A DNA stretch of 32,000 bases from Cuniculiplasma divulgatum (GTDB lineage: Archaea; Thermoplasmatota; Thermoplasmata; Thermoplasmatales; Thermoplasmataceae), in contig NZ_LT671858.1 in assembly GCF_900083515.1 (NCBI RefSeq), forward strand, positions 1,620,001-1,652,000, written 5' to 3'. The position numbers were made by a program, and so were the translations under genes. The stretch's first letter is position 1, and each line of letters begins with the position of its first letter. Under the pieces are notes generated by a model that ran no database searches, was not told where the DNA came from, and was given only the letters and a program-made list of their open reading frames with translations. This document shows, piece after piece, positions 562-15,559 of this stretch.

Positions 562-1662
562 ATGTCCTTTAACCTCGGGATTGAAAATCTTGGAAAAAAT
601 AGAATAAATGAGAATGTGGCCTTATTAACTAATGCCAGTGGAGTAACTCAGAATTTAGAGCAAAACGTTGAATTTCTAATAAGAAAAGGGTTCAGAATTA
701 GAAGGATTTTTACAGCGGAACATGGTTTTTATGGAACACTAAACGATGGGGATGATGTTAAAAATGAGACATATAACGGGATAGATGTTGTATCCATTTA
801 TTCTGCAGATAGAAAGTCCATAAAACCGGAAGAGCTGGAAGATGTTGATACAGTGATATATGATTTACAGGATGCTGGCACAAGACCATATACATTTATC
901 TCTTCGCTAAAAAACCTATTAATCACAGCCTCGGAGCTTGGAAAAAAGGTTGTTGTGTGCGATAGACCCAATCCCCTTTCCAACATTGTAGATGGACCTG
1001 TGTTAAAGAAGGAGTTTGTTTCATTTGTTGGAGCGGACGAATTTCCACTAAGATACGGAATGACCATAGGTGAATTAGCTCAATTCATGAATAGAAATAT
1101 TGGTGCAGATCTGAATATTTCAAAGATGACAGATTACGATCCGTCAAGATATTATGACAATTACATGAAATATTACGTCCCACCATCACTGAACCTAAAT
1201 TCTCTAGACTCAATGTTTAACTTTTCAGGAATGGTATTAATGGAGGCAGCTAATGTTAGCGTTGGTAGAGGCACTCCATACCCATTTATGCAGTTTGGAT
1301 TGGAAGATCCAGTAGATCTTAGATCTGATGAGTTCGAAGGTGTCATTCTGAGAAAAACTTCCTTTATATCATTGCTAAATCCGCTTAAAGAAAAGAAACT
1401 AATAGGATATTTCATTCATATAAAGGATAAAAAGAGTTACAGTAGCATAAGGATGGTAGCCACTATCATGAAAAAACTCTATAACATGGATAAAAATCTA
1501 ATTAATTTAAAAAAGCTGAATCTTAATTACGGATCTGATGAGATGTCAAAATGGCTTGAGAAAAATGAGATAGTCACAGATCTTTATGAAAAAATTAATT
1601 CAGAAATCTCCGAATTCATGAAAATCAGGAAAGATTACTCACTTTACAGGTTTCCTAATTAA
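562..1662 (+). CDS. DUF1343 family protein, NamZ (B. subtilis YbbC)-like exo-beta-N-acetylmuramidase family; no signal peptide
   Basis: 366-aa ORF. It has blocks I recognise as DUF1343 hallmarks: LLTNASGV, AEHGFYG, DLQDAGTRPYTFIS, CDRPNPL, GPVLKKEFVSFVG, RYGMTIGELAQFMN. The N-terminus (MSFNLGIENLGKNR) is hydrophilic, so the protein is probably cytoplasmic. Confidence 0.8.
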   Translation: MSFNLGIENLGKNRINENVALLTNASGVTQNLEQNVEFLIRKGFRIRRIFTAEHGFYGTLNDGDDVKNETYNGIDVVSIYSADRKSIKPEELEDVDTVIYDLQDAGTRPYTFISSLKNLLITASELGKKVVVCDRPNPLSNIVDGPVLKKEFVSFVGADEFPLRYGMTIGELAQFMNRNIGADLNISKMTDYDPSRYYDNYMKYYVPPSLNLNSLDSMFNFSGMVLMEAANVSVGRGTPYPFMQFGLEDPVDLRSDEFEGVILRKTSFISLLNPLKEKKLIGYFIHIKDKKSYSSIRMVATIMKKLYNMDKNLINLKKLNLNYGSDEMSKWLEKNEIVTDLYEKINSEISEFMKIRKDYSLYRFPN

Positions 1663-1711
1663 TGAACCATAATCTTTATTTTACATTCTTACATAGTTTT
1701 TTGTTTTGATC

Positions 1712-2674
1712 TCAATCAACCATAGATTCCATCAGTTCAATATAAGGTTCTGATTCGCTTATTCTTACCTTCAGGTTAAGAGGTATTAGCATCTGTTCAT
1801 TTCCATGCCCAAAAGGTGCCATGGCTAGAGATGGTTTTGAATATTTTACCATGTATTCCCTTATTACATCTTCTATTGATGGTTTTCCTTCTCCTGAGGT
1901 TGACCTATTCTTAAATTCCCCAAATACAAATCCTGCAAGTTGATTAATCGTGCCATTGAGTATCATTATGTCCAGATATCTTTCTATGTCTACTGATCTT
2001 TCATTTGTATCCTCACAGAATAACACTTTATCAGTAAACTCCGGCATATAGGGTGTTCCAGTTAGAGATGAAAAGACTGACATGTTGGTTCCCATGGACC
2101 TTCCCTGGGCACTTCCTCCAACCACATACTTTACCAGTCTTTTTATATATGGCTTTAGGTCTGACAGTTCTCCTCTAAATATCTTAAACATTGTTTCCAG
2201 TTTTTCCCCTCGAAATTCTTCAGTGTCTGTGTCTGGCATAGGACCGTGAAATGTGACTAACCCAGAAATCTTATTTATGGCCATATGAAGATTTGTAATA
2301 TCACTGTACCCCATGAATATCTTTGGATTATCTCTTATTACATCAAAATCTAGAAATGGTAAAATCTGCCTTGCTCCATGGCCACCTCTTGCACAGAATA
2401 TTGCCTTTACCTTATGGTCCCTAAAAGCATCCATCAATTCTTTAGCACGCAACTCTGGATTTGCTGAATGATAAGTTTCCTGATTGAGCTTTTTCACGTT
2501 GATACCATATGTTACCTTATACCCAATTCTGGTTATTTCCTCAACTGATTGGTTTAAGGATATAATTTCAGGGTAACTTGACGGGGCTATTATTCTTATT
2601 TCATCCCCTATGTTCAGTCTAGCAGGCTTTATTACCTCTTTCCGTTCTCTGTAATTTTCAGAACTTCCTGTCAT
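1712..2674 (-). CDS. LD-carboxypeptidase (peptidase S66; LdcA/MccF family)
   Basis: 320-aa ORF. IRIIAPSS N-terminal strand, FMGYSDITNLH (nucleophile-Ser box G-x-S-D-x-T), FCEDTNE (acidic box) and APFGHGNEQMLIPLN (catalytic-His box). Convergent with the DUF1343 gene across a 49-nt gap. Confidence 0.85.
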   Translation of the reverse strand: MTGSSENYRERKEVIKPARLNIGDEIRIIAPSSYPEIISLNQSVEEITRIGYKVTYGINVKKLNQETYHSANPELRAKELMDAFRDHKVKAIFCARGGHGARQILPFLDFDVIRDNPKIFMGYSDITNLHMAINKISGLVTFHGPMPDTDTEEFRGEKLETMFKIFRGELSDLKPYIKRLVKYVVGGSAQGRSMGTNMSVFSSLTGTPYMPEFTDKVLFCEDTNERSVDIERYLDIMILNGTINQLAGFVFGEFKNRSTSGEGKPSIEDVIREYMVKYSKPSLAMAPFGHGNEQMLIPLNLKVRISESEPYIELMESMVD

Positions 2675-2913
2675 TTCATTCAGTTTGTAATATGGACTCC
2701 ATATAATAAATTTTTAAGTATCAAATATAAATTTTAGACTAATAGCTTGTGGAAATGGTTGGGATAATTTCAGAAACAGACACAGGTATCCAAGGAATCT
2801 TAACCAATAAAATTAATGTGAAAATTGAAAATAAATATTTGGGTAAATGTTGAAATATAAAAGAAAAGATTTGTGATGCCAGAGATCTTTATCTGACATA
2901 TTCATTTTAAAAA

Positions 2914-5900
2914 TTAGTTTTTAGGTATTTTCGGTTTTCTTATGAGATAAACACCTGCAACCGCAACAATAACTATCACAACTGCTATTATGGCAATTAT
3001 CTCATAGAGGTAGTTGCTGCTTGATGGTTTTACAACTTTTTCAGTTACGGTGTAATTGACGAAGGAGTATGCAGGTACGACAGAGCTATTTGATGTGCTT
3101 GCCTTGGCAACAATGCTTTCATTTGCCGTGACATAAGACCCGCTTCCTGAACTTGCATCCCCTACCGTAAATGTGAATACCGCAACACCAGCGCTATTTG
3201 TTGTCAGGTTATATCCACTGATTCCAACATTTACACCGGAAAGACTATATGATGTGATGTTAACATATGCTCCAGGTACCGCGGTTCCATTTTCGGTCAC
3301 TGTGAATGTTATTTTACCTGTTTGACCTGACGTGTAACTGGTACTTCCCAAGTTATATGACATAACCAGAGATGGATTTATTACGAATACATTGTTGTAT
3401 GCGTATCCCGCGCCTGTTTGGTTCTGGTTTCCCACAGATGCGACTGCAGTTATGTTAATCTCCTGATAATAAAGAGACATGGGATTTCCAGATGAACCAT
3501 ATGTTGTCATTAAGTTTGAAAGTGTCTTAGGAATTGTGAATGTGAAATTTGCACTGTTTCCAGTAGATGTGTTAAAAGTGAATGCACTGCTTGTAACACT
3601 TCCGGGTATTCCCGACATTACCACGGTTATGTTTGCATCTTTTACCTTTGTTCCAGTGCTATTAGTTACAGTGTACATGTATTTACCGCTGCTTCCTGCA
3701 GATAGATGGGTTTTGCCTGAATAAGTAGATGTAACTCTTAGATTATTCTTTTCGTTTGTGTTTATCAACTCTATGTTAAGATATGTTGATGTTGTAATTG
3801 TATGAATATCCTTAGTGGGTGGATTTACTGTTGCAGAAATGTTAACCTCTTCATCTGGCAGGTTTATTATGTTTCCGCTGCTTGATGTTGTTTGCAACAA
3901 AAGGTTGAGATTTTTGAATACTTCATACTTCCAAGTTGCTTGACCAGCTGAGTTTGTAGTAAGCTGGTTGGATGTTGTGTTGATCAACCCTTTTGCTATG
4001 GATGATACAGATACTCCAACTGTGGCACCCTGAACCGGTAAACCAGTTGTCTTATTAAGAACTGTGTATGTTATACTTCCACTATCTCCCTGCTTTTCTA
4101 CGAGAGCTCCTGTTAATTTCTCTTGTACCTGCATGTTATACTTATAGCTTACGGAAGTTGTTGTCTTGGCCTTGTTTACCTCCATAAGTGTGAAATAAAG
4201 GCTGAATAGAGAATTCGAGTTCTCTGTGGTAAAGTTAGAGAACTGGTTTGTTTGGAATGCATCTATCGTTGTTGTATATCCAAGGTTGATTAGAGTTGCT
4301 TCTTCTATGATTAATGTCTGAATCTCCTTTGAAATATGAATTGCCTGCTGATATGAGTCCGACTGCAACAATTCATTTGATAGGTTGGTTAGAAGAGTGG
4401 TCACCTGTTGACCGGAAAGATGTTTCCCATTAAAGTTCAACGATGTATATGGTCCTAGAGTACAACCTACACTGAAATAAGCTGGGGCATCATTTATGAA
4501 TAATGCGCATAGGTCTGCTGGATCTCCAGATTCTGTTCCCTGTCCATATTCTGCCATCTGATAGAAATTTCCTTTACCAGTGATGGTTTCGTATATGTTG
4601 TTAAACATTGTTGTGTAGGCTTCTTCTTTTATCACCGTCGTTATACCAAGGGCTGCGAATGAGGTTGACATTTCATTTGCAATTTCAGCAGCGCAAGGTG
4701 TCTCACTTCCTGGAGCTATCTGTATTTGAATTGTTACCTTCTTACCGTTATATGTCAGCGTTCCAGAATTGTTAGCCATTCCAGGTATGGCACTAATCAT
4801 TGATTTGGCTTTCTGCATATTATAAGTATACTGCGGGCTTGATGAATTGTACCAGAGCACATTGCATGGAGGTACGGTATTTGAAGATGGTGTTAAGAGT
4901 CCATCATATACTGTTCCATCTATTGTTTGGTATGGAGTTGCATAGCTCAATGCCTGTCTGAAGGTAGTAATGTTAAGAGGCGTTTCGTTTTCATTTATTC
5001 TAACTGCACAGAAAACCTGAGATGGCTTAATATAAATATATGCTCCTGGAGTTCCCTTAACCAGTGACAGGAAAGATGGTGTTACTGGTAGAAGATCCAG
5101 TTGTCCTTTGGTGAAGGCTGCTACCATTGAAGACTGAGAAGAATAGTATGGTTGATAGAATTCATATATCTTTGGAGAGTACTGTCTTAGGCCACTGCTC
5201 GCGTTGGCGTACTGTGCAAAGAAATGTGGATTTACATAAAACTTATCATATTGGTTTGGTACAATGCCACCTTGAGGCATACCGTATCCATTAACGACCA
5301 TAAATGGTCCGTCTCCGACCAATCCTGGAGCAGAACCAGTTGCGGTGTTCCATCCTAGATCCCAGCCATAATATCCATTTCCAGAAGACATTCCTGGAGT
5401 GTAATTGAATAATCCTTTAACACTCGTAAAGTCGTGATGTACCCAGATATTATATGGAAGAATATATGATTGCAGGGAGCTTGATTGAATTAACAGTGTT
5501 GGTTTTGGTACAAATACCTTTACTGAAAGATTTCCATTAGGAATTACATTAACTACTCCTGGCCATCCACCAAGGGCAGCCTCAAGCCTCCAGCTCAGAA
5601 CTACATCCCCAGACTGCAGATAATATTTCTTCATTACAGTCGGTGCATAGCTCGTGTATGTGTGCGTGAATGATACTCCTGTTGAATTTCTATAATCTAC
5701 CTTGTTCGAAAATGTATATGTTTGCGAAGCATTTGCCTTTGACCAGTCTGTCCACTGTGCATATGGTCTCAGATATATTGTGTACACATATGAGTAATTC
5801 GTCATTTTGCCAGTTTCAATGTCAAAGGTTTTATTGTTTGACGTAACGTGTGTCAATGTGTAGTTTGTGGCAAGCCATGGTTCTATTTGCCCATCAGGCA

Positions 5901-6195
5901 TTGTTTTGTAAAGACTCCCGTATACCAATTTGGCAATGAATAAATCGCCAAAAGTAATTCCGGTAAATGTATTCAGATCACCTATGGTACAGTCGAGACC
6001 ACAAGTAAATGTTCCATTAGTGTAACCGGGCTCTTCCATTGTAGTTGTTGGCATTTGCCATGCTGTTGATGATGAACCATCAGGCTGTACATTCAAATAA
6101 CTACTCTGACTAATACCAGTATTTGTAGATGATGTATTAATTGGTAAATTAGTTCCAAAGACGAAAAACGCGGAACCTACCATTAATAATACCAT
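2914..6195 (-). CDS. Extracellular solute-binding protein family 5 (Opp/Dpp-type peptide-binding) fused to Ig-like repeat region, C-terminal transmembrane anchor
   Basis: 1093-aa ORF. Short hydrophobic N-terminus (MVLLMVGSAFFVFG). The N-terminal roughly 650 aa have the look of archaeal SBP_bac_5 proteins, which is a weaker, gestalt call. The C-terminal third consists of Thr/Ser/Asn-rich beta-repeat modules, with LTTNSAGQATWKY and LTTNSAGVAVFTF recurring. It ends with a Ser-rich linker, the hydrophobic helix IIAIIAVVIVIVAVAGVYLI and the basic tail RKPKIPKN. I counted about 31 N-x-S/T sequons by hand. Confidence 0.7.
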   Translation of the reverse strand: MVLLMVGSAFFVFGTNLPINTSSTNTGISQSSYLNVQPDGSSSTAWQMPTTTMEEPGYTNGTFTCGLDCTIGDLNTFTGITFGDLFIAKLVYGSLYKTMPDGQIEPWLATNYTLTHVTSNNKTFDIETGKMTNYSYVYTIYLRPYAQWTDWSKANASQTYTFSNKVDYRNSTGVSFTHTYTSYAPTVMKKYYLQSGDVVLSWRLEAALGGWPGVVNVIPNGNLSVKVFVPKPTLLIQSSSLQSYILPYNIWVHHDFTSVKGLFNYTPGMSSGNGYYGWDLGWNTATGSAPGLVGDGPFMVVNGYGMPQGGIVPNQYDKFYVNPHFFAQYANASSGLRQYSPKIYEFYQPYYSSQSSMVAAFTKGQLDLLPVTPSFLSLVKGTPGAYIYIKPSQVFCAVRINENETPLNITTFRQALSYATPYQTIDGTVYDGLLTPSSNTVPPCNVLWYNSSSPQYTYNMQKAKSMISAIPGMANNSGTLTYNGKKVTIQIQIAPGSETPCAAEIANEMSTSFAALGITTVIKEEAYTTMFNNIYETITGKGNFYQMAEYGQGTESGDPADLCALFINDAPAYFSVGCTLGPYTSLNFNGKHLSGQQVTTLLTNLSNELLQSDSYQQAIHISKEIQTLIIEEATLINLGYTTTIDAFQTNQFSNFTTENSNSLFSLYFTLMEVNKAKTTTSVSYKYNMQVQEKLTGALVEKQGDSGSITYTVLNKTTGLPVQGATVGVSVSSIAKGLINTTSNQLTTNSAGQATWKYEVFKNLNLLLQTTSSSGNIINLPDEEVNISATVNPPTKDIHTITTSTYLNIELINTNEKNNLRVTSTYSGKTHLSAGSSGKYMYTVTNSTGTKVKDANITVVMSGIPGSVTSSAFTFNTSTGNSANFTFTIPKTLSNLMTTYGSSGNPMSLYYQEINITAVASVGNQNQTGAGYAYNNVFVINPSLVMSYNLGSTSYTSGQTGKITFTVTENGTAVPGAYVNITSYSLSGVNVGISGYNLTTNSAGVAVFTFTVGDASSGSGSYVTANESIVAKASTSNSSVVPAYSFVNYTVTEKVVKPSSSNYLYEIIAIIAVVIVIVAVAGVYLIRKPKIPKN

Positions 6196-6462
6196 AAATA
6201 CTGATAAAACAATTTTTTATTTATCATTAGTGTCGAATCTGATCTCTTATTAATAAACATTTCTATAATTTTTTTTCCGATATAAAAGTTTTAATAATAA
6301 AAAGTAATCCCCTACCGTGTTTTTGACAATAACACATATTTTCTGATTGTCATTATCAAATTATTTAAATGTTCTTAAACTAAAAATTTAATTGATCTGA
6401 TTTATTTCTTGTATCACTTATTGAGGTTCAAAAATTTAATTATCAGATTCCCATTTCTCACC

Positions 6463-7557
6463 ATGAAAATACATAGAGAAAGTGTGACTTCTTTTTGCTT
6501 TCTGGATTCAGAGGGTAAGATTGTATTATCAAAAAACGAAAATTTACCAGTAATTCCTGCTTCAAATATGAAATTGGTCACCTCCCTTTGTGCACTGGAG
6601 TCCCTAGGAACGGATTATATATTTACCACAAGTTTTTCTTCAGATAAAGATGATTTACACATTGATGGTGACCCATCTTTCTTTTTAAATATAGGTGAAT
6701 GCAGGAGAATCATTAAAGAATTAAAAATTGAAAAGGTAAACAACATTTATCTTGAAAAACCAAGAATCGATAGAGAGTTTTACAATGGTGATTGGGTTTA
6801 TGGTGATTCCAAGTACAGTTATCAGCCAAGAATATCTAATTTTTTTATTGGTGAGAATTGCAAAATTAAAAGTGGTTTCAAATTTGACAATAATGATTTC
6901 AACTATATTCATCAGAACGAGCAATTATTTCAACCAGTTAAAAACCCAGATAAACATTTAGTAGAAGCTTTTTCAGAGGAAAAAAATCTGAGGACAATAA
7001 GGAAAAGTTTGTCTTCTAATAATAATTTTGAAAAAGTTATTTCCCACAGTGCGAATATAAGAGATGTTCTAAGACATATTCTCTTCGAAAGCTGTAATTT
7101 TTATGCTGAAGTTATATTCAAGTATCTTTCAAGTAGCGAAAAATCGCTGGGCACATGGGAAAATTCTTCTAAATTTGTAATGGATTATATTTCCAGGATA
7201 AATGGATCTGAAAATGTAAGGATTAAAGATGGATCTGGACTGAGTAGAGAGAATTTCGTAACCACAGGATTTCTTTCTAACATGCTTTTATATGCTAAGA
7301 AAAATTTTGGAAACACCTTTATAGAACTAATGCCAACAATAGGTCAGGGAACACTGAGGAAACGCCTTATTTCTCTTGAAAAAAATGGAATTTATGCAAA
7401 AACTGGAACACTATCTGGAGTCTCTGCTCTTAGCGGATATATAAGTTCAATGGATACTTTTTTCTCTATAATTATTAATAATAGTCTTGATGAAGGATCA
7501 GTTAGGCAGATGGAAATAGACAGGATTCTATCGGAATTTATTGACAAATATAAATAG
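6463..7557 (+). CDS. D-alanyl-D-alanine carboxypeptidase/endopeptidase homolog (PBP4 type, peptidase S13), short form without signal peptide
   Basis: Active-site boxes PASNMKL (SxxK), DGSGLSRENF and AKTGTLSG (KTG). The ORF track starts at a TTG (6409). The first ATG is at 6463 (MKIHRESV...), which I prefer. Neither start gives a signal peptide. At about 364-382 aa it is shorter than the roughly 480 aa I recall for bacterial DacB. Confidence 0.75.
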   Translation: MKIHRESVTSFCFLDSEGKIVLSKNENLPVIPASNMKLVTSLCALESLGTDYIFTTSFSSDKDDLHIDGDPSFFLNIGECRRIIKELKIEKVNNIYLEKPRIDREFYNGDWVYGDSKYSYQPRISNFFIGENCKIKSGFKFDNNDFNYIHQNEQLFQPVKNPDKHLVEAFSEEKNLRTIRKSLSSNNNFEKVISHSANIRDVLRHILFESCNFYAEVIFKYLSSSEKSLGTWENSSKFVMDYISRINGSENVRIKDGSGLSRENFVTTGFLSNMLLYAKKNFGNTFIELMPTIGQGTLRKRLISLEKNGIYAKTGTLSGVSALSGYISSMDTFFSIIINNSLDEGSVRQMEIDRILSEFIDKYK

Positions 7558-8686: not shown

Positions 8687-8694
8687 TTTATAAA
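8687..8694 (+). promoter_or_regulatory. Archaeal TATA box (TTTATAAA) for the downstream Ntn amidotransferase gene; implies a leaderless or near-leaderless mRNA
   Basis: TTTATAAA ends 22 nt upstream of the ATG at 8716. That is the distance expected between a TATA box and the transcription start. No Shine-Dalgarno-like purine run lies in between. Confidence 0.5.
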
Positions 8695-8715
8695 GACCAT
8701 CAAGATATAGCTTGA

Positions 8716-9450
8716 ATGTGTCGCATGTTTTGTTTATCTGGAGATTTCTCTAAAGAATATAAAAAAATACTGGACTCCTTTATTGAGGTCACACGAAACG
8801 ATCCTCTCTCCGTAAACAGTGATGGTAGTTTAACATCACATGATCATGGATACGGATATGTAAGATACGATAGTTCTTCACTGGATTTTTTTAGATCACG
8901 AACTCCGGTGTTTGAATCTAATATTCCAGACTTCAGGTCAGGTCAGTTTATTATGCACGCCAGAAAAGCTGCCCCTGATGAACCAATTGGAACTCTAGAG
9001 AGTCATCCCCACTATGAAGTTGATGAAGATTATGAAGTATTTCTAGCGCACAATGGATGGTTTGATAAGAAAAAAATTGCGGTAGAGCTTGGTATTGAAA
9101 ACTTTACGAGATATGTTGATAGTCAATTATTTCTCAAATATATCCTTTCATTCAATGGAGAATTTAGAACTCGTTTGGAGAAAACAATATCCCTTGCAAA
9201 AGAGAAGGATTTGATCAGGGCAACCGCCAATTTGATGATTCTTTCAATAGATCGCAATACGCGAAATTCCAAGTTGTATTACTATACAGATGTAAAAGAA
9301 GGTAGTGAGTATAGTGATTATGTGAAGTTGTATCACGGAAATACAGACCTGTGGAATGGAGTTTTTTCTTCCAGTATTATAAAGTCCATTTCCTTCCCTA
9401 AAAATGTTACTATGAAAGAGGTGAGGAGAGGCGTTTTAAATGAGCTCTAA
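8716..9450 (+). CDS. Class II (Ntn-type) glutamine amidotransferase-like amidohydrolase (YafJ/EgtC-like)
   Basis: 244-aa ORF beginning Met-Cys (MCRMFCLSG), the nucleophile Cys2 arrangement of Ntn amidotransferases. HGYGY and LAHNGWF boxes are present. No synthase domain is attached. Confidence 0.7.
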   Translation: MCRMFCLSGDFSKEYKKILDSFIEVTRNDPLSVNSDGSLTSHDHGYGYVRYDSSSLDFFRSRTPVFESNIPDFRSGQFIMHARKAAPDEPIGTLESHPHYEVDEDYEVFLAHNGWFDKKKIAVELGIENFTRYVDSQLFLKYILSFNGEFRTRLEKTISLAKEKDLIRATANLMILSIDRNTRNSKLYYYTDVKEGSEYSDYVKLYHGNTDLWNGVFSSSIIKSISFPKNVTMKEVRRGVLNEL

Positions 9451-9463
9451 TTTTTCTTTTTTT
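9451..9463 (+). terminator. Oligo-T tract (TTTTTCTTTTTTT) immediately after the stop codon, archaeal intrinsic-terminator-like
   Basis: A T5-C-T7 run starts one nt after the TAA at 9448-9450. It is followed by a 210-nt AT-rich spacer before the next gene. Confidence 0.45.
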
Positions 9464-9673
9464 GTGAACTAATCTAAGAACGATGATAATATTTTAATAT
9501 GTTTTGTTTTTATAATAAATAGGCTAAATATTAACTTTCGAAATTTTACTTTCTCTAAAAATTGGCTAAAAATAATCCATAGACAAGAAATAGTAATTAT
9601 TTTTTAAACCAGTTGACTAAAACTAATACGTAGTTTCAATTACTAGAGAGAATAGTTAGCGTGGTGATAAATT

Positions 9674-10996
9674 TTGGAACTGAGTTTGGAATTTAGATCG
9701 TTGAATGAGATCGAAAGTCTAGTAAAAAGTAATGCAATTTCCCCATGCACGGTTTTAGAAAGACTCATGGAGAGAATTCACAAACTGGACACAAAACTCA
9801 AAAGTTACACAAGATTGAATTTAAATTCCCTTGAAGAATGCGCAAAAAGAGCGAAGTCGTCGGAAAATGTAATACCAGTTTCAGTCAAAGATTTATTTGA
9901 TACAAAAAATATTGAAACAAATTATGGATCAACGATTTATAGAGATCATTTTCCTTCCAAAGATTCCTCGGTTGTAGCAAATATCAAGAAAAGAAATGGT
10001 ATAGTTATAGGTAAAACTGTGACTCACGAGTTTGCCCTTGGAATAATTTCTTCACCAACTAAAAACCCATGGGATTTGAGAAGAATTCCTGGAGGTTCTA
10101 GTGGAGGGTCTGCTGCGGCTGTAGCAGCCGGATTGTCGGTATTTGCTACTGGAACTGATACTGGTGGATCTATTAGAATTCCAGCGGCGATGTGTGGTGT
10201 TACTGGATTTAAACCTACTTACAACCTCATACCCAGAGGTGGAATTTACCCAGAATCCTGGTCTCTGGACCATGCAGGGCCTATAACCAGATATGCCAGT
10301 GATTTGACCCTTGAACTGGAATTAATGACCAGAAAAAACTTTATTATTAAAGGAAGAGAAAGTAAAAAATTTAAAGTGGGTGTTGCCTGGGAAATGTTTG
10401 AATACTGTGAATCCAGTGTGAAAAAAGTCTCATTAGCTGCACTTGAGAAAATTAAAAAAGAGCTGAATATTGAATATATTCATGTTAAAGAAAAATGCCT
10501 GAGATTTAAGGAAATGAAGCACTTTCATGAGATTATTGATACAAGTGAAATTGCCCTAATTCACAGGGAGAACTATGAAAAATATCCAGATAGTTATTTA
10601 GATAGCTCTATTGAGCAGATAGAAGAAGGTATGCGGGTTAAAGCTGTGGATTATGTTAATGCTAAAAGATCCAGAGAGAAATACAGGGAACTATTAGACT
10701 CACAGTTTAAGACTCTCGATATAATTATAATTCCCACATTACAGGACGTGGCCCCTCTTACAGTTCACCAAAAGAAAAGAGAGGAAGTCGATGATATATC
10801 TGAAATTGATTTTCTTTCGCCTTTAAATTATTCAGGAAATCCTGCATTAACTATTCCAGTTGGGTTTTCACATGAACTTCCTGTTGGAATGCAGATAATC
10901 GGAAAGAATAATTCAGATTTAAGATGTATTGAGTTTGCTTCTCTTGTGCAGGATCTCACTGATTGGCATAAAGCAATTCCACAGGGCTTTTCCTGA
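9674..10996 (+). CDS. Amidase-signature family amidase (GatA-like fold, stand-alone)
   Basis: 440-aa ORF. It has the signature GGSSGGSAAAVAAG, GTDTGGSIRIPAAMCG and an upstream catalytic-Lys context, VSVKDLFDT. The ORF track start is a TTG, so the true start is uncertain. No gatB or gatC is adjacent. Confidence 0.85.
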   Translation: MELSLEFRSLNEIESLVKSNAISPCTVLERLMERIHKLDTKLKSYTRLNLNSLEECAKRAKSSENVIPVSVKDLFDTKNIETNYGSTIYRDHFPSKDSSVVANIKKRNGIVIGKTVTHEFALGIISSPTKNPWDLRRIPGGSSGGSAAAVAAGLSVFATGTDTGGSIRIPAAMCGVTGFKPTYNLIPRGGIYPESWSLDHAGPITRYASDLTLELELMTRKNFIIKGRESKKFKVGVAWEMFEYCESSVKKVSLAALEKIKKELNIEYIHVKEKCLRFKEMKHFHEIIDTSEIALIHRENYEKYPDSYLDSSIEQIEEGMRVKAVDYVNAKRSREKYRELLDSQFKTLDIIIIPTLQDVAPLTVHQKKREEVDDISEIDFLSPLNYSGNPALTIPVGFSHELPVGMQIIGKNNSDLRCIEFASLVQDLTDWHKAIPQGFS

Positions 10997-11229
10997 ACTA
11001 TCTTTGTCTGGCACGGTAATCTTAGAAACCACAAATGGCAATTGCATTGTAGGATTGGCTGTTACATAATATCTGTGGTATTGTATTTCTATGACCTTAT
11101 GAGTGATGCAATTAACTACTTCCTATATATTTCTATTTAAAATTAGTATAAAATTGAGCTTTTACTGATTTATAGCTATATCCTACTTATAAGAATATAT
11201 TTATCATCTCAAGTACATTACAGTACTTT

Positions 11230-12015
11230 GTGGAAATTGAAACCGTAATGGATCCTGATAAATTAAGAGGCATGATTCCGATAATTAAATCAGCATGGGG
11301 AATGAGCACCATGGATCAACTTGTGAAAGATATGATTGCTGCAATGAGGTTTCATGGTGGTTTGGCCCTAATTGCCATGGAAGATGAAAAAGCGGTAGGA
11401 ATGCATTTTAGTTTTACTGGAAGAAGAAACGGTAAGATATACCTTTACTCACATATGACTGGAGTTCTAAGTGATAAAAAGTATTCAGGTATTGGATTCC
11501 AGTTGAAAATGAGACAAAAAGAGTGGGCTATTGAGAATGGTTTTGATCTTATAGCATGGACATATGATCCACTCATGGATTTAAATGCCAATTTTAATAT
11601 TCACAAAATTGGAGCCATTTCAAGGACATATCTAAGAAATTTTTATGGAGATATGGAAGATTCGATCAATTACGGGATTCCAAGTGATAGGTTCGTGGCT
11701 GAATGGTGGATACTTGACGACAAAATAGAGCAAAAAAAACCATTGATTAGCGTCAATACAGTTGATGAAAATCAGGAACTGAATGCTAAAGAATTGCCAG
11801 ATGTGATTTCATTTAAAATCCCCGTGGATTTCTTATCTATAAAAAGAAATGATAAAGATACATCACTTAATATTAGATTATCAACCAGGGCTATGATAGA
11901 AGATTTGTTTTCTGACGGATTTATAGTGACTGATTTTAAAAGAGATTCCTCATCGTATATCATGGTTAGGCGTAATAAGGAAGATTTAGAATACCATAAA
12001 AATTTTTTTACCTGA
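11230..12015 (+). CDS. GNAT-fold acyltransferase; candidate D-amino acid N-succinyl(acyl)transferase by context
   Basis: 261-aa ORF. GNAT motif-A-like YSGIGFQLKMRQKEWAIENGF. GTG start at 11230, alternative ATG at 11248. A TATA-like ATATTTAT at 11197-11204 lies about 26 nt upstream of the GTG. Convergent with the M20/racemase operon. Confidence 0.55.
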   Translation: MEIETVMDPDKLRGMIPIIKSAWGMSTMDQLVKDMIAAMRFHGGLALIAMEDEKAVGMHFSFTGRRNGKIYLYSHMTGVLSDKKYSGIGFQLKMRQKEWAIENGFDLIAWTYDPLMDLNANFNIHKIGAISRTYLRNFYGDMEDSINYGIPSDRFVAEWWILDDKIEQKKPLISVNTVDENQELNAKELPDVISFKIPVDFLSIKRNDKDTSLNIRLSTRAMIEDLFSDGFIVTDFKRDSSSYIMVRRNKEDLEYHKNFFT

Positions 12016-12061
12016 CTTCGCTACACCAACTATTAATTGGTTTTGAGATTAAATTTTGTTA

Positions 12062-13171
12062 TCACATGGTCATTATCAGGCCTAAAAGGGCTGAACGTTC
12101 TGGAAGAGTATCAAGGAGCAGATATTCATTTTCTGAATGTGCACCATCACCGACAGCTCCAAGACCATCGATTACTGGACAGTATTTAGAGCAGATATTT
12201 CCATCGCTTGCTCCAGAAACTGAAACTTCATCAATATTTAATCCAATATTGCTGGCAAGTAGCTTTACTTTTTGAAAAAGATCTTTTGTTAAATCTGTTC
12301 TGGTCATGGGTTCTCTCATTCTGTAGGTAACTGATGTTGTAGAACCTGCCAGCCCTGTTTTTAATGATTTTAGAAATAATAACACATTTTCTGCAGATTC
12401 TTCAGAGCTGTATCTAACATCTATTCCAATCTCACAGAAATCAGGTATCACATTGGTTCTTGTGCCACCATGGATCGTACCTATGTTAATTAACGTACCA
12501 TCATTAATACCCGCGGAAAAGTTTTTAATTTGCTCAATTATGGAACTCATTGCATTTATTGCATTAATACCTTTCTTTGGGTCCAGTCCTGCATGCGCCG
12601 CCTTTCCAGTTATTTTCAGCATTATTGTTCCAACACCTTTTCTTTCGGTTTTGAGATTTCCATTAAGAGATGCTTCCATGACCAGAGCAAATTTAGATCT
12701 CTTTGCCTCTTCCTCGATTATTGATCTGGAGAAGGCTGAGCCTATTTCCTCATCTGACGTAATTAGTAAAACAACTTTGTTTTTTATTGTTTTATTTCTA
12801 ACAAGATATTCCATGGCAAAGATAGTCTGCACCAGGCCTCCTTTCATATCAAAGACACCGGGTCCATATGCTTTTCCACTTTCAATCCTGAATGGATTTT
12901 TCTTTGTGGTTCCCTCATCAAATACGGTGTCATAATGAGTTAACAACAAAATCTGTTCCTGTGCGTCAGGGTTGAATATACATCTTATAATGTTTCCAGC
13001 AGATTCTGACCTAATTAATTCACACTTTAACCCCGTTATATGTTCTATTATATCCAGAAGGTGATTTGCAAATTTATCCAGAAGTGGTTTATTTACTGAA
13101 GGAGTTTCCATATTGACAAAATCCTCCAGCATTTGTATCATATCCATCTTTCTGCTTTTCATATAATCCAT
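12062..13171 (-). CDS. M20 family metallopeptidase (carboxypeptidase G2 / N-acyl-L-amino acid amidohydrolase type); candidate N-succinyl-L-amino acid desuccinylase
   Basis: 369-aa ORF. THYDTV (His/Asp metal ligands), GPGVFDMKGG, ITSDEEIGS and a C-terminal GDGAHSENEY. Its start lies 5 nt downstream of the stop of the enolase-superfamily gene, on the same strand. Confidence 0.8.
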   Translation of the reverse strand: MDYMKSRKMDMIQMLEDFVNMETPSVNKPLLDKFANHLLDIIEHITGLKCELIRSESAGNIIRCIFNPDAQEQILLLTHYDTVFDEGTTKKNPFRIESGKAYGPGVFDMKGGLVQTIFAMEYLVRNKTIKNKVVLLITSDEEIGSAFSRSIIEEEAKRSKFALVMEASLNGNLKTERKGVGTIMLKITGKAAHAGLDPKKGINAINAMSSIIEQIKNFSAGINDGTLINIGTIHGGTRTNVIPDFCEIGIDVRYSSEESAENVLLFLKSLKTGLAGSTTSVTYRMREPMTRTDLTKDLFQKVKLLASNIGLNIDEVSVSGASDGNICSKYCPVIDGLGAVGDGAHSENEYLLLDTLPERSALLGLIMTM

Positions 13172-13176
13172 TATGT

Positions 13177-14265
13177 CTATGATAACACCCCTTCTTCAAC
13201 TTTAAATTGTGTTAGGACTGATTCATTGATTTTGACACCTATTCCGGGAGAATTGAATGGTTTTATAATTCCATCATTCATTTCAAACAGCCTATCCACT
13301 ATATCCTGACTAAAATATCTTTCGTTTGGAGATGTGTCCCCTGGGTAGTCTATGAGTTCGCTGGAAGCCATTGCTATGTTGAATGATCTTCCTATGCCAG
13401 TTTCAAGCATACCACCAATCCATGCATGTCCCTTATTATTACTGGCTATTTTTGCTATAAGATTTGAATTATAGAGTCCCCCTACCCTTCCTGGCTTAAT
13501 GTTCACAACTCTACATGCACCTATTTCAAAAGCATTTTCAGCAATTTCAGGGGATGTAATAGATTCATCCAGACATATGGGTGTTGAAAGTATTTTAGCC
13601 AATTTCGAATGGTATATTATATCATCATGGTAAAGAGGTTGCTCAAGGTATATCAAATCAAATTTGTCAATTTTTTCAAGCGTCTTAAAATCCTTTACTG
13701 TATAATCACTGTTCGCGTCCGCACTGAGAGGTATATCAGGAAAGTGGTCCCTTATTGGGGCCAATATTGAAACTTCTCCTCCTTTCCTGATTTTTACCTT
13801 GATCCTTTTGTAACCCTTATCCAGCGATTGCTGAATTTTCTCAAGTGTTACATTTATTTTATCAATACCAAGTGATATTCCAGCGTTTGCATAACCTCTT
13901 GGTTTTTCATTTATAAATTCAAAAAGGGGTTTTTCTGCCACTTTAGAATGATAGTCATACAGCAACATCTCCATGGCTGCTTTTGCCATATTGTTCCCCC
14001 TGATAAAATTTGAAATCTCATTAAACTTCTCCGGAGATGGCAAATTTTGAATCAATTTCACAAGATAATTCTTAATTATATGAAATGCTGTTGTATTATC
14101 CTCTGGTCCATAGAAAGGATCTTCACTTGTGATTAGTTCTGAGAATGCTTTAATACCATCATGATTAAGTTCAAAAATGATCACATCCTTATCCAGAGTA
14201 GTTCCAAAACTTGTGGTAAATGGAGACTTCATTGGAATCTTCAACCTGTAATATTTAAGGTTCAT
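13177..14265 (-). CDS. Enolase-superfamily enzyme of the N-succinylamino acid racemase / o-succinylbenzoate synthase (NSAR/OSBS) subfamily
   Basis: KRIKVKI (KxK acid/base box), SADANSDY, YLEQPL and CLDES (three metal ligands), VNIKPGRVGG (second catalytic Lys) and GGMLETGIGRS. The last two boxes match my memory of NSAR/OSBS rather than dipeptide epimerases. The ORF track start is a TTG at 14304. I prefer the ATG at 14265 (MNLKYYRLKIPMKSPF). Confidence 0.75.
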   Translation of the reverse strand: MNLKYYRLKIPMKSPFTTSFGTTLDKDVIIFELNHDGIKAFSELITSEDPFYGPEDNTTAFHIIKNYLVKLIQNLPSPEKFNEISNFIRGNNMAKAAMEMLLYDYHSKVAEKPLFEFINEKPRGYANAGISLGIDKINVTLEKIQQSLDKGYKRIKVKIRKGGEVSILAPIRDHFPDIPLSADANSDYTVKDFKTLEKIDKFDLIYLEQPLYHDDIIYHSKLAKILSTPICLDESITSPEIAENAFEIGACRVVNIKPGRVGGLYNSNLIAKIASNNKGHAWIGGMLETGIGRSFNIAMASSELIDYPGDTSPNERYFSQDIVDRLFEMNDGIIKPFNSPGIGVKINESVLTQFKVEEGVLS

Positions 14266-14449
14266 ACAAATTCGATTGATGTGATATAGATAAATATTTT
14301 GCAATGTTCTCTAGGAAATTGTAAGATTTCAACAATGTCGATTATATATTTATATTAATTTATTAACATTAACTTAAGAAATACTAGCCTTCGGGCCTAA
14401 TTTTAAATTTGTAGCAAACTTAATTTAATCAGGAATAATGTGAAGAATC

Positions 14450-15559
14450 ATGTATAGTGAGGTTAAAAGAGGTTCAGTAGAAAATAGACAATTGCTTATA
14501 GATTCTCTTGATTCAGTTTTTCGACCAGGAAATGTTCAGGGCTCATCAATGGCACTTGAATTCCCCCATCTTTTTTCTGATGATAATATAGAAAACACCT
14601 TCTATATCGATGATGGCAAAATTCCTGTTAGCCAGGCAAGTGTACTTTTATCAAAAACATGCATAAACGGAGCCATACTTGACGTTGCTTCACTTGGTTC
14701 AGTATCCACAATGAAGGATCATAGACACAAGGGTTTATCCACAAAAATCATAAACAGAATGATTGAAGTTTACAGGAATTCTGAAATAGACCTTCTCCTG
14801 GTTTCAGGGGAGATTGAACTGTATACTAAGCTCGGTTGTGTGAAAACAGGATCGGATTATTCAGCAGTAATAGAAAAAATTGGAAAAAATGAAGATATAG
14901 AACAAAATGGAAAATATTTTGTCAAACTGTCCTCACCGGAGGAAAGAATTGCTAATGCAGTAGAATACCACAGGATTCATATTAAAGAAAAGTTCAGGTA
15001 CATGAGAACTTCTAAAGAATTCAGTATCTTGTTAAACGCTCTATGGTTTAAGAGAAATGGATTTCGGATGGACCTGTTTGAAATCAGAAATGAGAATGAA
15101 ACTATATTAGCTTACGTTGTAGCATTCAAGAAAATAGGAGATTCAAAGTTAAAGATAATGGAATATGCAGGTTCTCGAAAGGCCATAGCCAGTTGTCTTC
15201 TCGATATAATGGCTAAAATGGAATGTAGTGAAATTAGATTCAGAGTAAACGAGGAGGATTTTAATTTTATTGAGGAGCTCTCCAGATTAAATGTTAAGCT
15301 TGTTCAGGAAAACTCACAGGGAACTTTAAAGATTCTGAATTCCCAGTCCATCTTCAGAAAATTAAGACCGCTTATAATAGAAAGAATAGGAGAATATTTT
15401 GAATTTAGGGAAATAGGCAATGAAAAGTGGTTATTTATATCTGGTTCATTAAAGAAGGAGATTAATGGATATGATGATTTAACTCACTTCATATTTGATA
15501 AGAAGGAGGGTTCTCTGGGTATTCCCCTGATGTTTACCGATGATTTGAATTATATATGA
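14450..15559 (+). CDS. GNAT family N-acetyltransferase, Eis/COG4552-like architecture (GNAT plus C-terminal extension)
   Basis: 369-aa ORF. Motif A, HRHKGLSTKIINRMIEVY, sits in the N-terminal third. The long C-terminal region is of the size seen in Eis-like enzymes. Divergent from the racemase gene across a 145-185-nt spacer. Confidence 0.55.
   Translation: MYSEVKRGSVENRQLLIDSLDSVFRPGNVQGSSMALEFPHLFSDDNIENTFYIDDGKIPVSQASVLLSKTCINGAILDVASLGSVSTMKDHRHKGLSTKIINRMIEVYRNSEIDLLLVSGEIELYTKLGCVKTGSDYSAVIEKIGKNEDIEQNGKYFVKLSSPEERIANAVEYHRIHIKEKFRYMRTSKEFSILLNALWFKRNGFRMDLFEIRNENETILAYVVAFKKIGDSKLKIMEYAGSRKAIASCLLDIMAKMECSEIRFRVNEEDFNFIEELSRLNVKLVQENSQGTLKILNSQSIFRKLRPLIIERIGEYFEFREIGNEKWLFISGSLKKEINGYDDLTHFIFDKKEGSLGIPLMFTDDLNYI

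Follow-up and report, generated by a model that had tools for sequence, protein, structure and literature searches.

Does a 15-kb run of genes resembling bacterial cell-wall and D-amino-acid enzymes have anything to do with peptidoglycan when it lies in the genome of an archaeon? The question is raised by the window, the whole stretch of 32,000 nucleotides analysed here, whose host was identified by exact protein matches as Cuniculiplasma divulgatum (Thermoplasmatales). Archaeal markers (a Kae1-Bud32 fusion, S6e and HTH_10) are found inside the same window, and the host is indeed of the Thermoplasmata-like lineage proposed in a preliminary description of the sequence. C. divulgatum is described as a wall-less scavenger without a complete lysine pathway (PMC5155288), and Cuniculiplasma and most Thermoplasmatales are reported to be cell-wall-deficient (PMC5155288; PMC12448462).

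Gene families at 562–15559

Families were assigned using Pfam and NCBIfam, with AlphaFold models for fold-level cases. The open reading frames were found at the coordinates given earlier. As the preliminary description had stated, all 12 genes in this segment fall in named families, ten of them above Pfam thresholds and two (one Ntn hydrolase resembling EgtC, one GNAT) at the level of fold. The earlier claim that the hydrolases lack signal peptides also stands, as an N-terminal hydrophobic segment is absent from every enzyme and the binding protein SBP5 alone is membrane-anchored. The segment begins with NamZ1 (CSP5_1683, 366 aa; 562–1662, plus strand), a DUF1343/GH171-type exo-β-N-acetylmuramidase homolog (NamZ_N, E = 4e-59; NamZ_C, E = 5e-24) that was detected in the proteome and has no signal peptide. 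It belongs to an archaeal clade of 16 species with 42–82% identity, and its bacterial homologs reach at most 35%. Its last upstream neighbour is an α/β-hydrolase-fold-3 esterase (CSP5_1682; 1–192, minus strand), of which the window edge leaves the first 64 codons; this protein was identified from the L006 gene (Pfam Abhydrolase_3/BD-FAE) and is present in the proteome.

NamZ1 is followed by a serine peptidase of the LD-carboxypeptidase/MccF-like S66 family (CSP5_1684; 1712–2674, minus strand; Pfam Peptidase_S66 and S66C, PDB alignment), represented by 12 peptides in the proteome. The catalytic triad is complete (Ser in GYSDIT, Glu in CEDTNE, His in FGHG), and the gene adjoins NamZ1 in the related loci L001, L008 and L009. 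The protein scores far higher against MccF-like structures than against LdcA. The next gene encodes SBP5 (CSP5_1685, 1093 aa; 2914–6195, minus strand; Pfam SBP_bac_5; in the proteome), an Opp-type substrate-binding protein with hydrophobic segments at the N-terminus (residues 1–19) and at the C-terminus (residues 1058–1090, the membrane anchor), as well as a Ser/Thr/Asn-rich extension of roughly 500 aa. Homologs of SBP5 adjoin an Opp ATPase (L001) or a full OppBCDF set (L097). Import of muropeptides is a known role of Opp-family binding proteins (PMC9790009), and SBP5 is a candidate for binding muropeptides or stem peptides.

The short S13 (PBP4/R39-type) DD-peptidase homolog (CSP5_1686, 364 aa; 6463–7557, plus strand, with an alternative TTG start at 6409; Pfam Peptidase_S13; in the proteome) retains intact SNMK (SxxK), SCN (SxN) and KTG motifs when aligned to R39, PBP4a and Bd0816. 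Its inserted domains are about 60 residues short, and the absence of a signal peptide indicates a cytoplasmic form. S13 genes accompany peptidoglycan genes in L001, L022, L095 and L097. Two GNAT acyltransferases and an amidase lie further along. GNAT292 (CSP5_1687, 292 aa; 7608–8486, minus strand) carries its GNAT domain in the C-terminal half (Pfam Acetyltransf_1/7/9) and keeps its position in Cuniculiplasma-genus loci only; the L094 and L095 clusters are flanked by a GNAT of like size and Pfam pattern, and tblastn detected no GNAT292 homolog beside them. Linkage of the amidase-signature enzyme (CSP5_1689; 9674–10996, plus strand; Pfam Amidase, E = 5.5e-83; in the proteome) is similarly confined to the genus. 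Every NCBIfam match of this enzyme is below its cutoff; identification as GatA was rejected in favour of a generic amidase. GNAT369 (CSP5_1693; 14450–15559, plus strand; Pfam; in the proteome) is a GNAT of the Acetyltransf_9 type that has a long extension at its C-terminus, and a 48% identical homolog directly follows S13 in L002.

Ntn244 (CSP5_1688; 8716–9450, plus strand) is a stand-alone Ntn hydrolase of the class-II-glutamine-amidotransferase type, whose one Pfam match (GATase_4) is sub-threshold. The top Foldseek match of its AlphaFold model (pLDDT 95.6) is EgtC (TM 0.66–0.72), with further matches to GlmS/PurF glutaminase domains. Since the protein begins MCR, Cys2 is the predicted nucleophile. 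Among 35 homologs, all of those with an organism name are from Thermoplasmatales, and R83, N113, G114 and D135 are invariant in the family. Ntn244 shares with EgtC, the γ-glutamyl amidohydrolase of the ergothioneine pathway, a common fold (TM about 0.7) and an N-terminal Met-Cys, and its invariant Arg, Asn-Gly and Asp occupy positions typical of glutamine/γ-glutamyl recognition; it probably cleaves a γ-glutamyl-type amide. In contrast to EgtC, to which it is only 17–19% identical, Ntn244 has no ergothioneine genes nearby; its partners are peptidoglycan-catabolic genes, in whose clusters it is embedded in L094, L095, L097, L022 and L023. It is also present in T. acidophilum and B_DKE-type genomes without peptidoglycan genes.

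Extent, conservation and expression of the locus

The preliminary description placed the cluster boundary at 562, which proved incorrect. Cuniculiplasma contigs reveal that the cluster extends at least 10 kb further upstream, past the window edge, and the segment at 562–15559 is the right-hand half of a locus of about 25 kb. The upstream part was read from contigs including the MAGs L006 and L007, and the fetched sequence stops at MurQ; window positions 1–561 are 100% identical to L006 9440–10000. Beyond the esterase, outside the window, lie genes for LysA, DUF218, NlpC/P60, NamZ2, an S15 hydrolase, a NagZ-like GH3, an L-Ala-D/L-Glu-epimerase-like MR_MLE protein and MurQ (C-terminus). Because L006 has an SBP_bac_1 gene at the place occupied by MR_MLE and MurQ in L007, cluster content differs between Cuniculiplasma strains. 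MurQ (303 bits, NCBIfam cutoff 168), LysA (348, cutoff 298) and the NagA of related clusters (272, cutoff 226) all pass, and the GH3, the epimerase and S13 fall below their equivalog cutoffs.

The same families recur as a group in about 20 independent loci of Thermoplasmata, which indicates that their grouping is not due to chance. In the genome collection, the 16 best NamZ1 loci all come from Thermoplasmata, and MurQ, NagA, GH3 and the epimerase are found in every one of these that has enough flank; NagA adjoins MurQ in a relative with a 58% identical NamZ. Clusters reached via the unrelated Ntn244 carry the same gene set and, in addition, a BadF-type kinase, AnmK, an MFS transporter, a D-lactate-dehydrogenase-like gene and a full Opp transporter (SBP5-OppBCDF). 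The gene order is preserved in L008, the 82% relative. Other additions in related clusters are NagA, a NagB-II-like SIS protein, an AmiE/PBP4B-like protein and an M19 dipeptidase. Several parts had previously been listed as missing. The NagZ-like GH3 and MurQ lie just upstream, whereas AnmK, the BadF-type sugar kinase, the AmiE/PBP4B-like amidase candidate and complete OppBCDF were located only inside homologous clusters of other Thermoplasmata; in the Cuniculiplasma sequence covered, which ends upstream at MurQ, a MurNAc kinase, a permease and a clear MurNAc-L-Ala amidase were not found. The cluster is expressed: at least 12 of its proteins (CSP5_1677, 1679, 1681–1686, 1689 and 1691–1693) were detected in a published proteome of a pure culture grown on complex medium without added peptidoglycan.

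A proposed salvage route and its alternatives

These gene families and their synteny suggest that the locus probably serves the uptake and cytoplasmic catabolism of bacterial peptidoglycan fragments in wall-less C. divulgatum. Import and intracellular dismantling of such fragments had been proposed earlier, and the recurrence in other Thermoplasmata lends support to this proposal. C. divulgatum and many of its relatives carry a conserved, expressed cluster whose enzyme families match a bacterial import and breakdown pathway, and so they probably live on the walls of dead bacteria. In the flow described here the families are assigned, and we infer all substrates from them. Surface-anchored SBP5 would bind stem peptides or muropeptides and pass them to an Opp-type ABC permease, which is encoded outside the window and is adjacent in relatives. 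The NagZ-like GH3 and the two NamZ paralogs would free GlcNAc and MurNAc, a kinase (AnmK or BadF-type in relatives) would form MurNAc-6-P, and MurQ would convert this into GlcNAc-6-P and D-lactate. In relatives, NagA and then the NagB-II-like SIS deaminase could lead on to fructose-6-P; neither gene was seen in the fetched Cuniculiplasma sequence, which ends at MurQ. On the peptide side, S13 may trim D-Ala-D-Ala termini or DD-cross-links, tetrapeptides may lose their terminal D-Ala to the S66 enzyme, and NlpC/P60 may cut the γ-D-Glu-mDAP bond. The MR_MLE epimerase would convert L-Ala-D-Glu to L-Ala-L-Glu, LysA would decarboxylate the freed meso-DAP to L-lysine in an organism reportedly without de novo lysine synthesis, and Ntn244 probably acts on its γ-glutamyl-type amide. 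Finally, D-amino acids would be converted to L-amino acids through N-acyl intermediates by orf261, NSAR and an M20 enzyme. The pathway itself is known from bacteria; we found no paper on such a salvage cluster in Thermoplasmatales, where its occurrence is apparently undescribed.

The right-hand third (11230–14304) is a separately conserved module. Orf261 (CSP5_1690; 11230–12015, plus strand), annotated as a predicted GNAT, has no Pfam match. In its AlphaFold2 model (pLDDT 90) the fold is that of a GNAT, to which a further C-terminal domain is added, and the protein is a candidate D-amino-acid N-succinyl/acyl-transferase. CSP5_1692 (13177–14304, minus strand; 18 peptides in the proteome), annotated menC, is securely assigned from its sequence to the NSAR/OSBS subfamily (N-succinylamino-acid racemase/o-succinylbenzoate synthase): it scores 376 bits against TIGR01928 (cutoff 201), its best solved structures are N-acylamino-acid racemases (NSAR/NAAAR), and the motifs KxK, D, E, D and K-P-G-R are readable. 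The M20 metallopeptidase gene (CSP5_1691; 12062–13171, minus strand; Pfam M20 and M20_dimer; 2 peptides in the proteome) lies 5 bp downstream on the same strand. The protein is carboxypeptidase-G2-like (best PDB match CPG2) and is a candidate N-succinyl-L-amino-acid desuccinylase. [quoted passage not shown] In contrast to that pathway, orf261 is outside the Pfam families and carries its extra domain, and M20 is absent beside NSAR-orf261 in Oxyplasma and L091.

Orf261 is a conserved partner of NSAR in Thermoplasmatales (a divergent pair in L090 and L091), where the two are found beside housekeeping genes without peptidoglycan genes. In Oxyplasma and another Thermoplasmatales genome the pair is 47–55% identical and neighbours glycine-cleavage and mevalonate genes. 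The module is thus a general one without peptidoglycan specificity, and adjacency is all that ties it to peptidoglycan. There is consequently a serious possibility, short of a probable one, that the peptidoglycan system comprises NamZ1, S66, SBP5, S13, probably Ntn244 and the upstream genes only, with GNAT292, the amidase, orf261, M20, NSAR and GNAT369 being unrelated amino-acid or xenobiotic-amide enzymes lying alongside; in that case the NSAR module would process D-amino acids of any origin, or belong to another N-acyl-amino-acid pathway. The genus-only positions of the amidase and GNAT292 are consistent with this composite, as is the relative with the 58% NamZ, in which SBP5 or GNAT369 comes directly after S13 and the six intervening genes are absent. 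The 12 genes described as one set are therefore upheld as families but not as a single unit. However, the GNAT369 homolog in L002, the like-sized GNATs flanking L094 and L095, and the order kept in L008 argue for a closer association. Furthermore, the left-hand enzymes necessarily yield D-Ala and D-Glu, and no alanine racemase is present among the proteome entries listed.

It is unlikely that the locus serves general peptide and amino-sugar scavenging, with annotations mirroring family names only and with ordinary oligopeptides, racemised or D-containing peptides and HexNAc glycans (fungal or archaeal glycoconjugates) as substrates. Such a role would suit a known peptide scavenger (PMC5155288), the MccF-like S66 protein, the sub-cutoff scores of GH3, the epimerase and S13, and expression without peptidoglycan in the medium. 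It is opposed by MurQ, which passes its family cutoff and is specific for the lactyl ether of MurNAc-6-P, by the joint recurrence of AnmK, NamZ, NlpC/P60 with SH3 domains, the epimerase-like gene, LysA and the D-lactate-dehydrogenase-like gene, and by a gene combination mirroring the B. subtilis ybb and ykfABCD sets. For CSP5_1692 alone, a role as a true o-succinylbenzoate synthase (MenC) in menaquinone synthesis, without racemase function, is suggested by the annotation and the OSBS name of TIGR01928, and NSAR/OSBS enzymes are often bifunctional (bioRxiv 10.1101/2022.03.03.481873). This role is improbable, because the futalosine-pathway enzyme MqnD is expressed in C. divulgatum; menB/D/E/F/A names are absent among the proteome entries listed, the operon with M20 and the GNAT pairing across the order match the published NSAR context, and the R266-equivalent residue is present (KPGR). 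Turnover of an unrecognised endogenous envelope or glycocalyx component containing MurNAc or D-amino acids would fit the constitutive expression and a cluster that occurs widely in Thermoplasmata, is apparently ancient there and shows no anomaly in composition, but is highly improbable given the wall deficiency reported in the papers cited above, enzymes that are all catabolic and cytoplasmic, and the absence of Mur ligase or other synthesis genes from roughly 25 loci inspected.

Comparison with bacterial systems

The proposed peptidoglycan salvage by the archaeal locus has its closest parallels in bacteria. The MurNAc/muropeptide rescue genes of B. subtilis are murQ-murR-murP-amiE-nagZ-namZ (ybbIHFEDC), and its NagZ and AmiE are secreted; Tannerella forsythia scavenges MurNAc made by other bacteria. 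The archaeal locus has in common with the ybb and T. forsythia NamZ systems an adjacent NamZ (DUF1343), GH3 NagZ and MurQ etherase, and archaeal relatives add the AmiE/PBP4B-like beta-lactamase-fold protein and NagA. Similar to T. forsythia, the archaeon would scavenge foreign MurNAc, and since its host is without murein, unlike B. subtilis, the pathway can only be catabolic. In contrast to ybb, the archaeon has a pair of NamZ paralogs that have diverged strongly (28% identity), and the archaeal clusters lack the PTS (MurP) and MurR, with relatives using an AnmK/BadF-type kinase and ABC or MFS transporters. The secreted NagZ and AmiE also differ from the archaeal enzymes, none of which has a signal peptide.

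The nearest stem-peptide catabolism systems are B. subtilis ykfABCD/dpp and E. coli LdcA-MpaA-YcjG-PepD with MppA/Opp or YejBEF-YepA import. These resemble the archaeal locus in the S66 carboxypeptidase, the NlpC/P60 γ-D-Glu-diamino-acid endopeptidase with SH3 domains, the MR_MLE L-Ala-D/L-Glu-epimerase-like gene, and an SBP_bac_5 binding protein with Opp ATPases. Distinctions are the archaeal extras (the short cytoplasmic S13, the EgtC-like Ntn hydrolase confined to Thermoplasmatales, a CocE/NonD S15 hydrolase and LysA), the anchoring and long extension of the binding protein, and an S66 member for which LdcA is a more distant match than the MccF-like proteins.

Gene identities, host, and expression

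Cuniculiplasma divulgatum, a member of the Thermoplasmatales, is an acidophile without a cell wall; it is described as scavenging proteinaceous material and as not possessing complete pathways for lysine, proline, histidine, or the branched-chain amino acids (PMC5155288). The cluster at 562–15559 shares its window with archaeal markers (a Kae1-Bud32 fusion, ribosomal protein S6e, and an HTH_10 regulator), indicating that its genes do belong to an archaeon and were not placed there by faulty binning. Comparison of UniProt accessions with the published proteome table identifies NamZ1 and the S66 protein as CSP5_1683 and CSP5_1684 of strain S5. The twelve ORFs and family names given in the preliminary description were borne out by Pfam and NCBIfam searches, fold models, and active-site motifs. 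The Pfam and NCBIfam matches confirm NamZ_N/C, Peptidase_S66/S66C, SBP_bac_5, Peptidase_S13, Amidase, M20, MR_MLE, and two GNAT domains, and several cluster proteins score under equivalog cutoffs. The earlier statement that the hydrolases carry no signal peptide also agrees with a hydropathy scan, in which every enzyme lacked an N-terminal hydrophobic segment; the SBP_bac_5 protein (2914–6195, − strand) alone has such a segment, together with a C-terminal membrane anchor.

The left-hand enzymes belong to families of peptidoglycan type. NamZ1 (562–1662, + strand) matches NamZ_N with 199.9 bits (cutoff 26.9) and NamZ_C with 86.2 bits (cutoff 25) in Pfam, shares only 30–35% identity with bacterial NamZ, and is predicted to be a homolog of the GH171 exo-β-N-acetylmuramidases. 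The S66 protein (1712–2674, − strand; Pfam S66 128 bits, S66C 94 bits) retains a Ser-Glu-His triad, as its GYSDIT, CED, and FGH motifs align to the catalytic positions of BA_5613. This protein fails the muramoyltetrapeptide carboxypeptidase equivalog (NF008424, 107.5 bits vs a cutoff of 378), and its nearest solved structures are MccF-like (E 5e-37) and not LdcA (E 1e-14 to 8e-29). The S13 protein (6463–7557, + strand) has SNMK, SCN, and KTG motifs that align to those of the R39 DD-peptidase. At 364 aa vs ~460–490, with inserted domains short by ~60 residues, it does not have the full PBP4 three-domain architecture, nor does it have an export signal (the N-terminal hydrophobic segment is absent); its TIGR00666 score of 105.6 falls slightly below the cutoff of 107.8. 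Identification of the amidase (9674–10996, + strand) as GatA is ruled out by a score of 235 bits vs a cutoff of 481, and "gatA" is likely a mis-annotation.

The hydrolase Ntn244 (8716–9450, + strand) matches Pfam GATase_4 below threshold (16.6 vs a cutoff of 23). A search of solved-structure sequences returned nothing for Ntn244, orf261, or GNAT369, and the folds of the first two come from prediction. The AlphaFold model of Ntn244 (26 homologs, pLDDT 95.6) best matches EgtC (TM ~0.7), followed by the glutaminase domains of GlmS and PurF. The protein starts with Met-Cys-Arg (MCR), and Arg83, Asn113-Gly114, and Asp135 are invariant. Model and alignment thus combine the αββα fold, N-terminal Cys, and Asn-Gly oxyanion pair of class-II glutamine-amidotransferase-type Ntn hydrolases, and Ntn244 is a likely γ-glutamyl-type amidohydrolase. 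Homologs are also found outside peptidoglycan clusters, including in Thermoplasma acidophilum. In that genome (AL139299.1, locus positions 6212–9729) the homolog is divergent beside an 857-aa penicillin-amidase-family (Ntn) gene, and peptidoglycan genes are absent nearby. This context suggests a wider role for the family in amide hydrolysis.

Expression was assessed from the supplementary tables of a proteome study of C. divulgatum S5 in pure culture (PMC7285479). Proteins detected there include the left-hand NamZ1, S66, SBP_bac_5, and S13 proteins (CSP5_1683, 1684, 1685, and 1686), the right-hand amidase (CSP5_1689), M20 (CSP5_1691, two peptides), NSAR (CSP5_1692), and GNAT369 (CSP5_1693), and the upstream products CSP5_1677 (S15), 1679 (NlpC/P60), 1681 (LysA), and 1682. 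According to the same supplement, S5 additionally expresses another LD-carboxypeptidase (CSP5_1596) and carries dapA (CSP5_1346), though the lysine pathway is reportedly incomplete.

Beyond the cluster, a DprA/Smf-type homolog is located at 17418–18879 (+ strand; Pfam DNA_processg_A 167 bits; TIGR00732 149.5 bits, cutoff 191). This gene overlaps by 29 bp a 249-aa ORF without a family (weak Tla3_N match only), and the two could form a SLOG-type conflict or DNA-uptake module. A 765-bp gap (16653–17417) separates it from an aldo-keto reductase gene; this gap wholly contains no ORF of at least 90 aa and has no Rfam or tRNA match. The region at 24730–30867 encodes an HTH_10 regulator, homoaconitase/IPM-dehydratase-like proteins (large subunit 470 bits, small subunit 154 bits), a CoA-transferase of family III, a short (349-aa) homocitrate/isopropylmalate-synthase-like protein, and an MFS transporter. 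Given the incomplete leucine and lysine pathways reported, these genes may serve 2-oxoacid elongation or the catabolism of organic acids. Rfam and tRNA searches of the whole window found nothing, and inspection of the AT-rich intergenic regions by eye revealed no convincing shared operator.

Upstream extension and conservation of the cluster

The content upstream of NamZ1 was read from Cuniculiplasma contigs with an identical NamZ gene. The nearest gene encodes an α/β-hydrolase whose first 64 codons occupy 1–192 of the window (− strand). Proceeding upstream, it is followed by LysA (diaminopimelate decarboxylase; 348 bits, cutoff 298), DUF218, an NlpC/P60 protein with SH3 domains, a second NamZ (NamZ2, 403 aa), a CocE/NonD S15 hydrolase, a NagZ-like GH3 protein, an MR_MLE protein whose best family match is L-Ala-D/L-Glu epimerase, and, at the end of the available sequence, the C-terminal part of an SIS protein of the MurQ type. 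This MurQ C-terminus lies upstream of MR_MLE-GH3 in two Cuniculiplasma contigs (L007 and L008), and at the equivalent position a related locus (L001, NamZ 58% identical) encodes NagA together with a complete MurQ (303 bits, cutoff 168). Consequently, of the parts earlier described as missing, NagZ and MurQ are present just outside the window, and AnmK was seen in relatives. Within the Cuniculiplasma sequence reaching to MurQ, no MurNAc kinase, permease, or clear MurNAc-L-Ala amidase was seen, and a search of metagenome contigs for sequence further upstream, using the epimerase of Cuniculiplasma as query, gave one distant match only.

Cluster content differs among strains. In the Cuniculiplasma MAG contig L006, an SBP_bac_1 gene is located upstream of GH3 where L007 has MR_MLE and MurQ, and in L005 (MAG GCA_027309815.1, 4746–8100) DUF772 transposase fragments and two unannotated ORFs are inserted between lysA and the esterase gene. 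The S15 and DUF218 genes (2708–4342 and 6583–7113 of L006) have equivalents in L001, L003, L094, and L095. The S15 hydrolase always adjoins GH3 and DUF218 recurs in archaeal clusters; bacterial peptidoglycan catabolism has no step assigned to either.

A scan with the NamZ1 alignment, using one genome per species, returned 16 top loci with 42–82% identity. All 16 are from Thermoplasmatales, Thermoplasmata, or Thermoplasmatota, one being a complete genome (CP009479.1), and identity falls sharply to ≤35% in bacteria. Mapping of labelled proteins identified a recurring set at these loci of M19 dipeptidase, NamZ, epimerase, GH3, and S15. Also recurring there are MurQ, NagA (272 bits, cutoff 226), a GlmS-C/NagB-II-like SIS protein, NlpC/P60, AnmK, and a β-lactamase-fold protein that best matches PBP4B/YfeW, the family to which AmiE, the MurNAc-L-Ala amidase of B. 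subtilis, belongs. Candidates for the kinase and amidase in relatives are AnmK, a BadF-type kinase, and the AmiE/PBP4B-like protein.

Loci reached independently through Ntn244 carry the same peptidoglycan set plus further genes. One of these (L095) further encodes a sugar kinase of the BadF/BcrA type, an MFS transporter, S13, and LysA. Another (L097) has the order AnmK, GH3, kinase, an unannotated 291-aa ORF, SBP_bac_5, a D-lactate-dehydrogenase-like protein with its Fe-S partner, S13, Ntn244, OppB, OppC, OppD, OppF, NamZ, the AmiE-like gene, MurQ, NagA, and SIS. The FAD-linked oxidase (GlcD/D-lactate-dehydrogenase-like) and Fe-S CCG-domain partner lie at 6402–8950 of this locus, within the peptidoglycan cluster; by family, the oxidase would suit oxidation of D-lactate released by MurQ. 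MurQ occurs at all archaeal loci whose flanks extend far enough, which argues for conserved linkage of the peptidoglycan part. The synteny expected of the whole cluster therefore holds for this part, which recurs across Thermoplasmata loci, while the amidase and GNAT292 (7608–8486, − strand) keep their positions only inside the genus. A recent horizontal-transfer island is rejected, as the GC content of the region (0.30–0.41) is like that of the rest of the window and, judged by pairwise scores, the archaeal NamZ1 clade is deep (42–82% within Thermoplasmata, ≤35% to bacteria).

A proposed D- to L-amino acid module

The right-hand genes orf261 (11230–12015, + strand), M20 (12062–13171, − strand), and NSAR (13177–14304, − strand) adjoin one another at 11230–14304, with M20 located 5 bp downstream of NSAR on the same strand. 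NSAR matches the NSAR/OSBS subfamily model TIGR01928 with 376 bits (cutoff 200.65), and its nearest solved structures are NAAAR/NSAR enzymes. Its translation contains the motifs KVK, SADAN, LEQP, LDES, and NIKPGR, which supply the KxK motif, the D/E/D ligands, the second Lys, and the R266 equivalent. The gene is annotated menC, and an actual MenC (o-succinylbenzoate synthase) is the rival reading. This reading is weakened by the expression in C. divulgatum of MqnD, a futalosine-pathway enzyme, and by the lack of men gene names among the proteome entries listed; "menC" is likely a mis-annotation. The orf261 protein has no Pfam match, and its model (pLDDT 90) is a GNAT fold with an extra C-terminal domain. 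Several orf261 homologs are called "chorismate synthase" by JGI, which looks erroneous.

A GNAT succinyltransferase, NSAR/OSBS, and M20 desuccinylase constitute a published route by which D-amino acids are turned into their L-forms (bioRxiv 10.1101/2022.03.03.481873). In Cuniculiplasma, the CPG2-like M20 has been added to the orf261-NSAR pair, which completes this route. By homology, N-succinylation of D-amino acids, racemization, and L-specific desuccinylation are candidate activities of orf261, NSAR, and M20. The orf261 family is spread across Thermoplasmatales. In Oxyplasma meridianum and another genome, orf261 is divergently paired with an NSAR ortholog (50–55% identity) and adjoins glycine-cleavage and mevalonate genes, with peptidoglycan genes absent, which makes GNAT-NSAR a lineage-wide module. 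In one relative, the gene directly after S13 is a homolog of GNAT369 (14450–15559, + strand). The left-hand enzymes would inevitably release D-Ala and D-Glu, so the genes at 7608–15559 plausibly cooperate with them, in a role that may extend beyond peptidoglycan.

Proposed peptidoglycan catabolism and comparison with known systems

No Mur or Mpl ligase genes were found in any locus inspected, and the host is wall-deficient (PMC5155288); the early view that self-recycling is unlikely is thereby upheld. As the host makes no murein, the proposed system is one of catabolic salvage and not recycling. Uptake would proceed through the anchored SBP_bac_5 protein and an Opp permease encoded elsewhere, with presumed muropeptide-type substrates. 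E. coli MppA/Opp provides a precedent for such uptake. Agrobacterium YepA/YejBEF provides another (PMC9790009). In the glycan branch, GH3 and NamZ1/NamZ2 would be followed by a kinase, MurQ, NagA, and a NagB-like enzyme to give fructose-6-phosphate, with D-lactate as by-product. In the peptide branch, S13, S66, NlpC/P60, the epimerase, and the dipeptidase would act in turn, LysA would convert meso-DAP to the lysine that the cell cannot make, and Ntn244 would cleave γ-glutamyl-type amides. D-Amino acids would then pass through orf261, NSAR, and M20 to L-amino acids. The S15 hydrolase is a candidate for the absent MurNAc-L-Ala amidase or an aminopeptidase.

Tentatively, as a joint proposition that we consider possible but somewhat short of probable, many Thermoplasmata, cultured Cuniculiplasma among them, may be dedicated consumers of bacterial peptidoglycan. 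Following Opp-type muropeptide import, amino sugars would be burned through NamZ, NagZ, and MurQ, lysine auxotrophy would be covered by peptidoglycan meso-DAP via LysA, and D-Ala and D-Glu would become L-amino acids via the N-acyl racemase route. Enzymes without a bacterial counterpart here would contribute as well, namely Ntn244 acting on the γ-D-glutamyl bond, the truncated cytoplasmic S13, and the CocE/NonD hydrolase.

A large part of microbial necromass consists of peptidoglycan and the D-amino acids it contains. To our knowledge, peptidoglycan degraders in extreme and subsurface habitats are poorly known, and archaea are seldom credited with a complete MurNAc pathway. The cluster genes already bear routine database names; full-text literature searches, and genome and enzyme papers on Cuniculiplasma and Thermoplasmatales, yielded no account of Thermoplasmatales catabolizing peptidoglycan or MurNAc. 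If correct, dedicated consumption would tie the "scavenger" Thermoplasmatales nutritionally to the bacteria of acid mine drainage, and culturable C. divulgatum with its published proteome offers a direct test system for archaeal peptidoglycan use. The analysis also flags uncharacterized families that await a functional assignment (NamZ1, the EgtC-like Ntn hydrolase, the short cytoplasmic S13, the S15 hydrolase, and DUF218) and puts right the likely mis-annotations "menC" (NSAR), "gatA" (amidase), and "chorismate synthase" (orf261 homologs).

The ybb (murQ...namZ) and ykfABCD genes of B. subtilis and the recycling enzymes of E. coli have counterparts in the archaeal set. In contrast to those bacterial systems, the archaeal cluster has as features of its own LysA, an S15 hydrolase, an S13 protein that is truncated and cytoplasmic, and an EgtC-like hydrolase specific to the lineage, and it contains two NamZ paralogs, each of which is closer by pairwise score to bacterial NamZ than to the other paralog.
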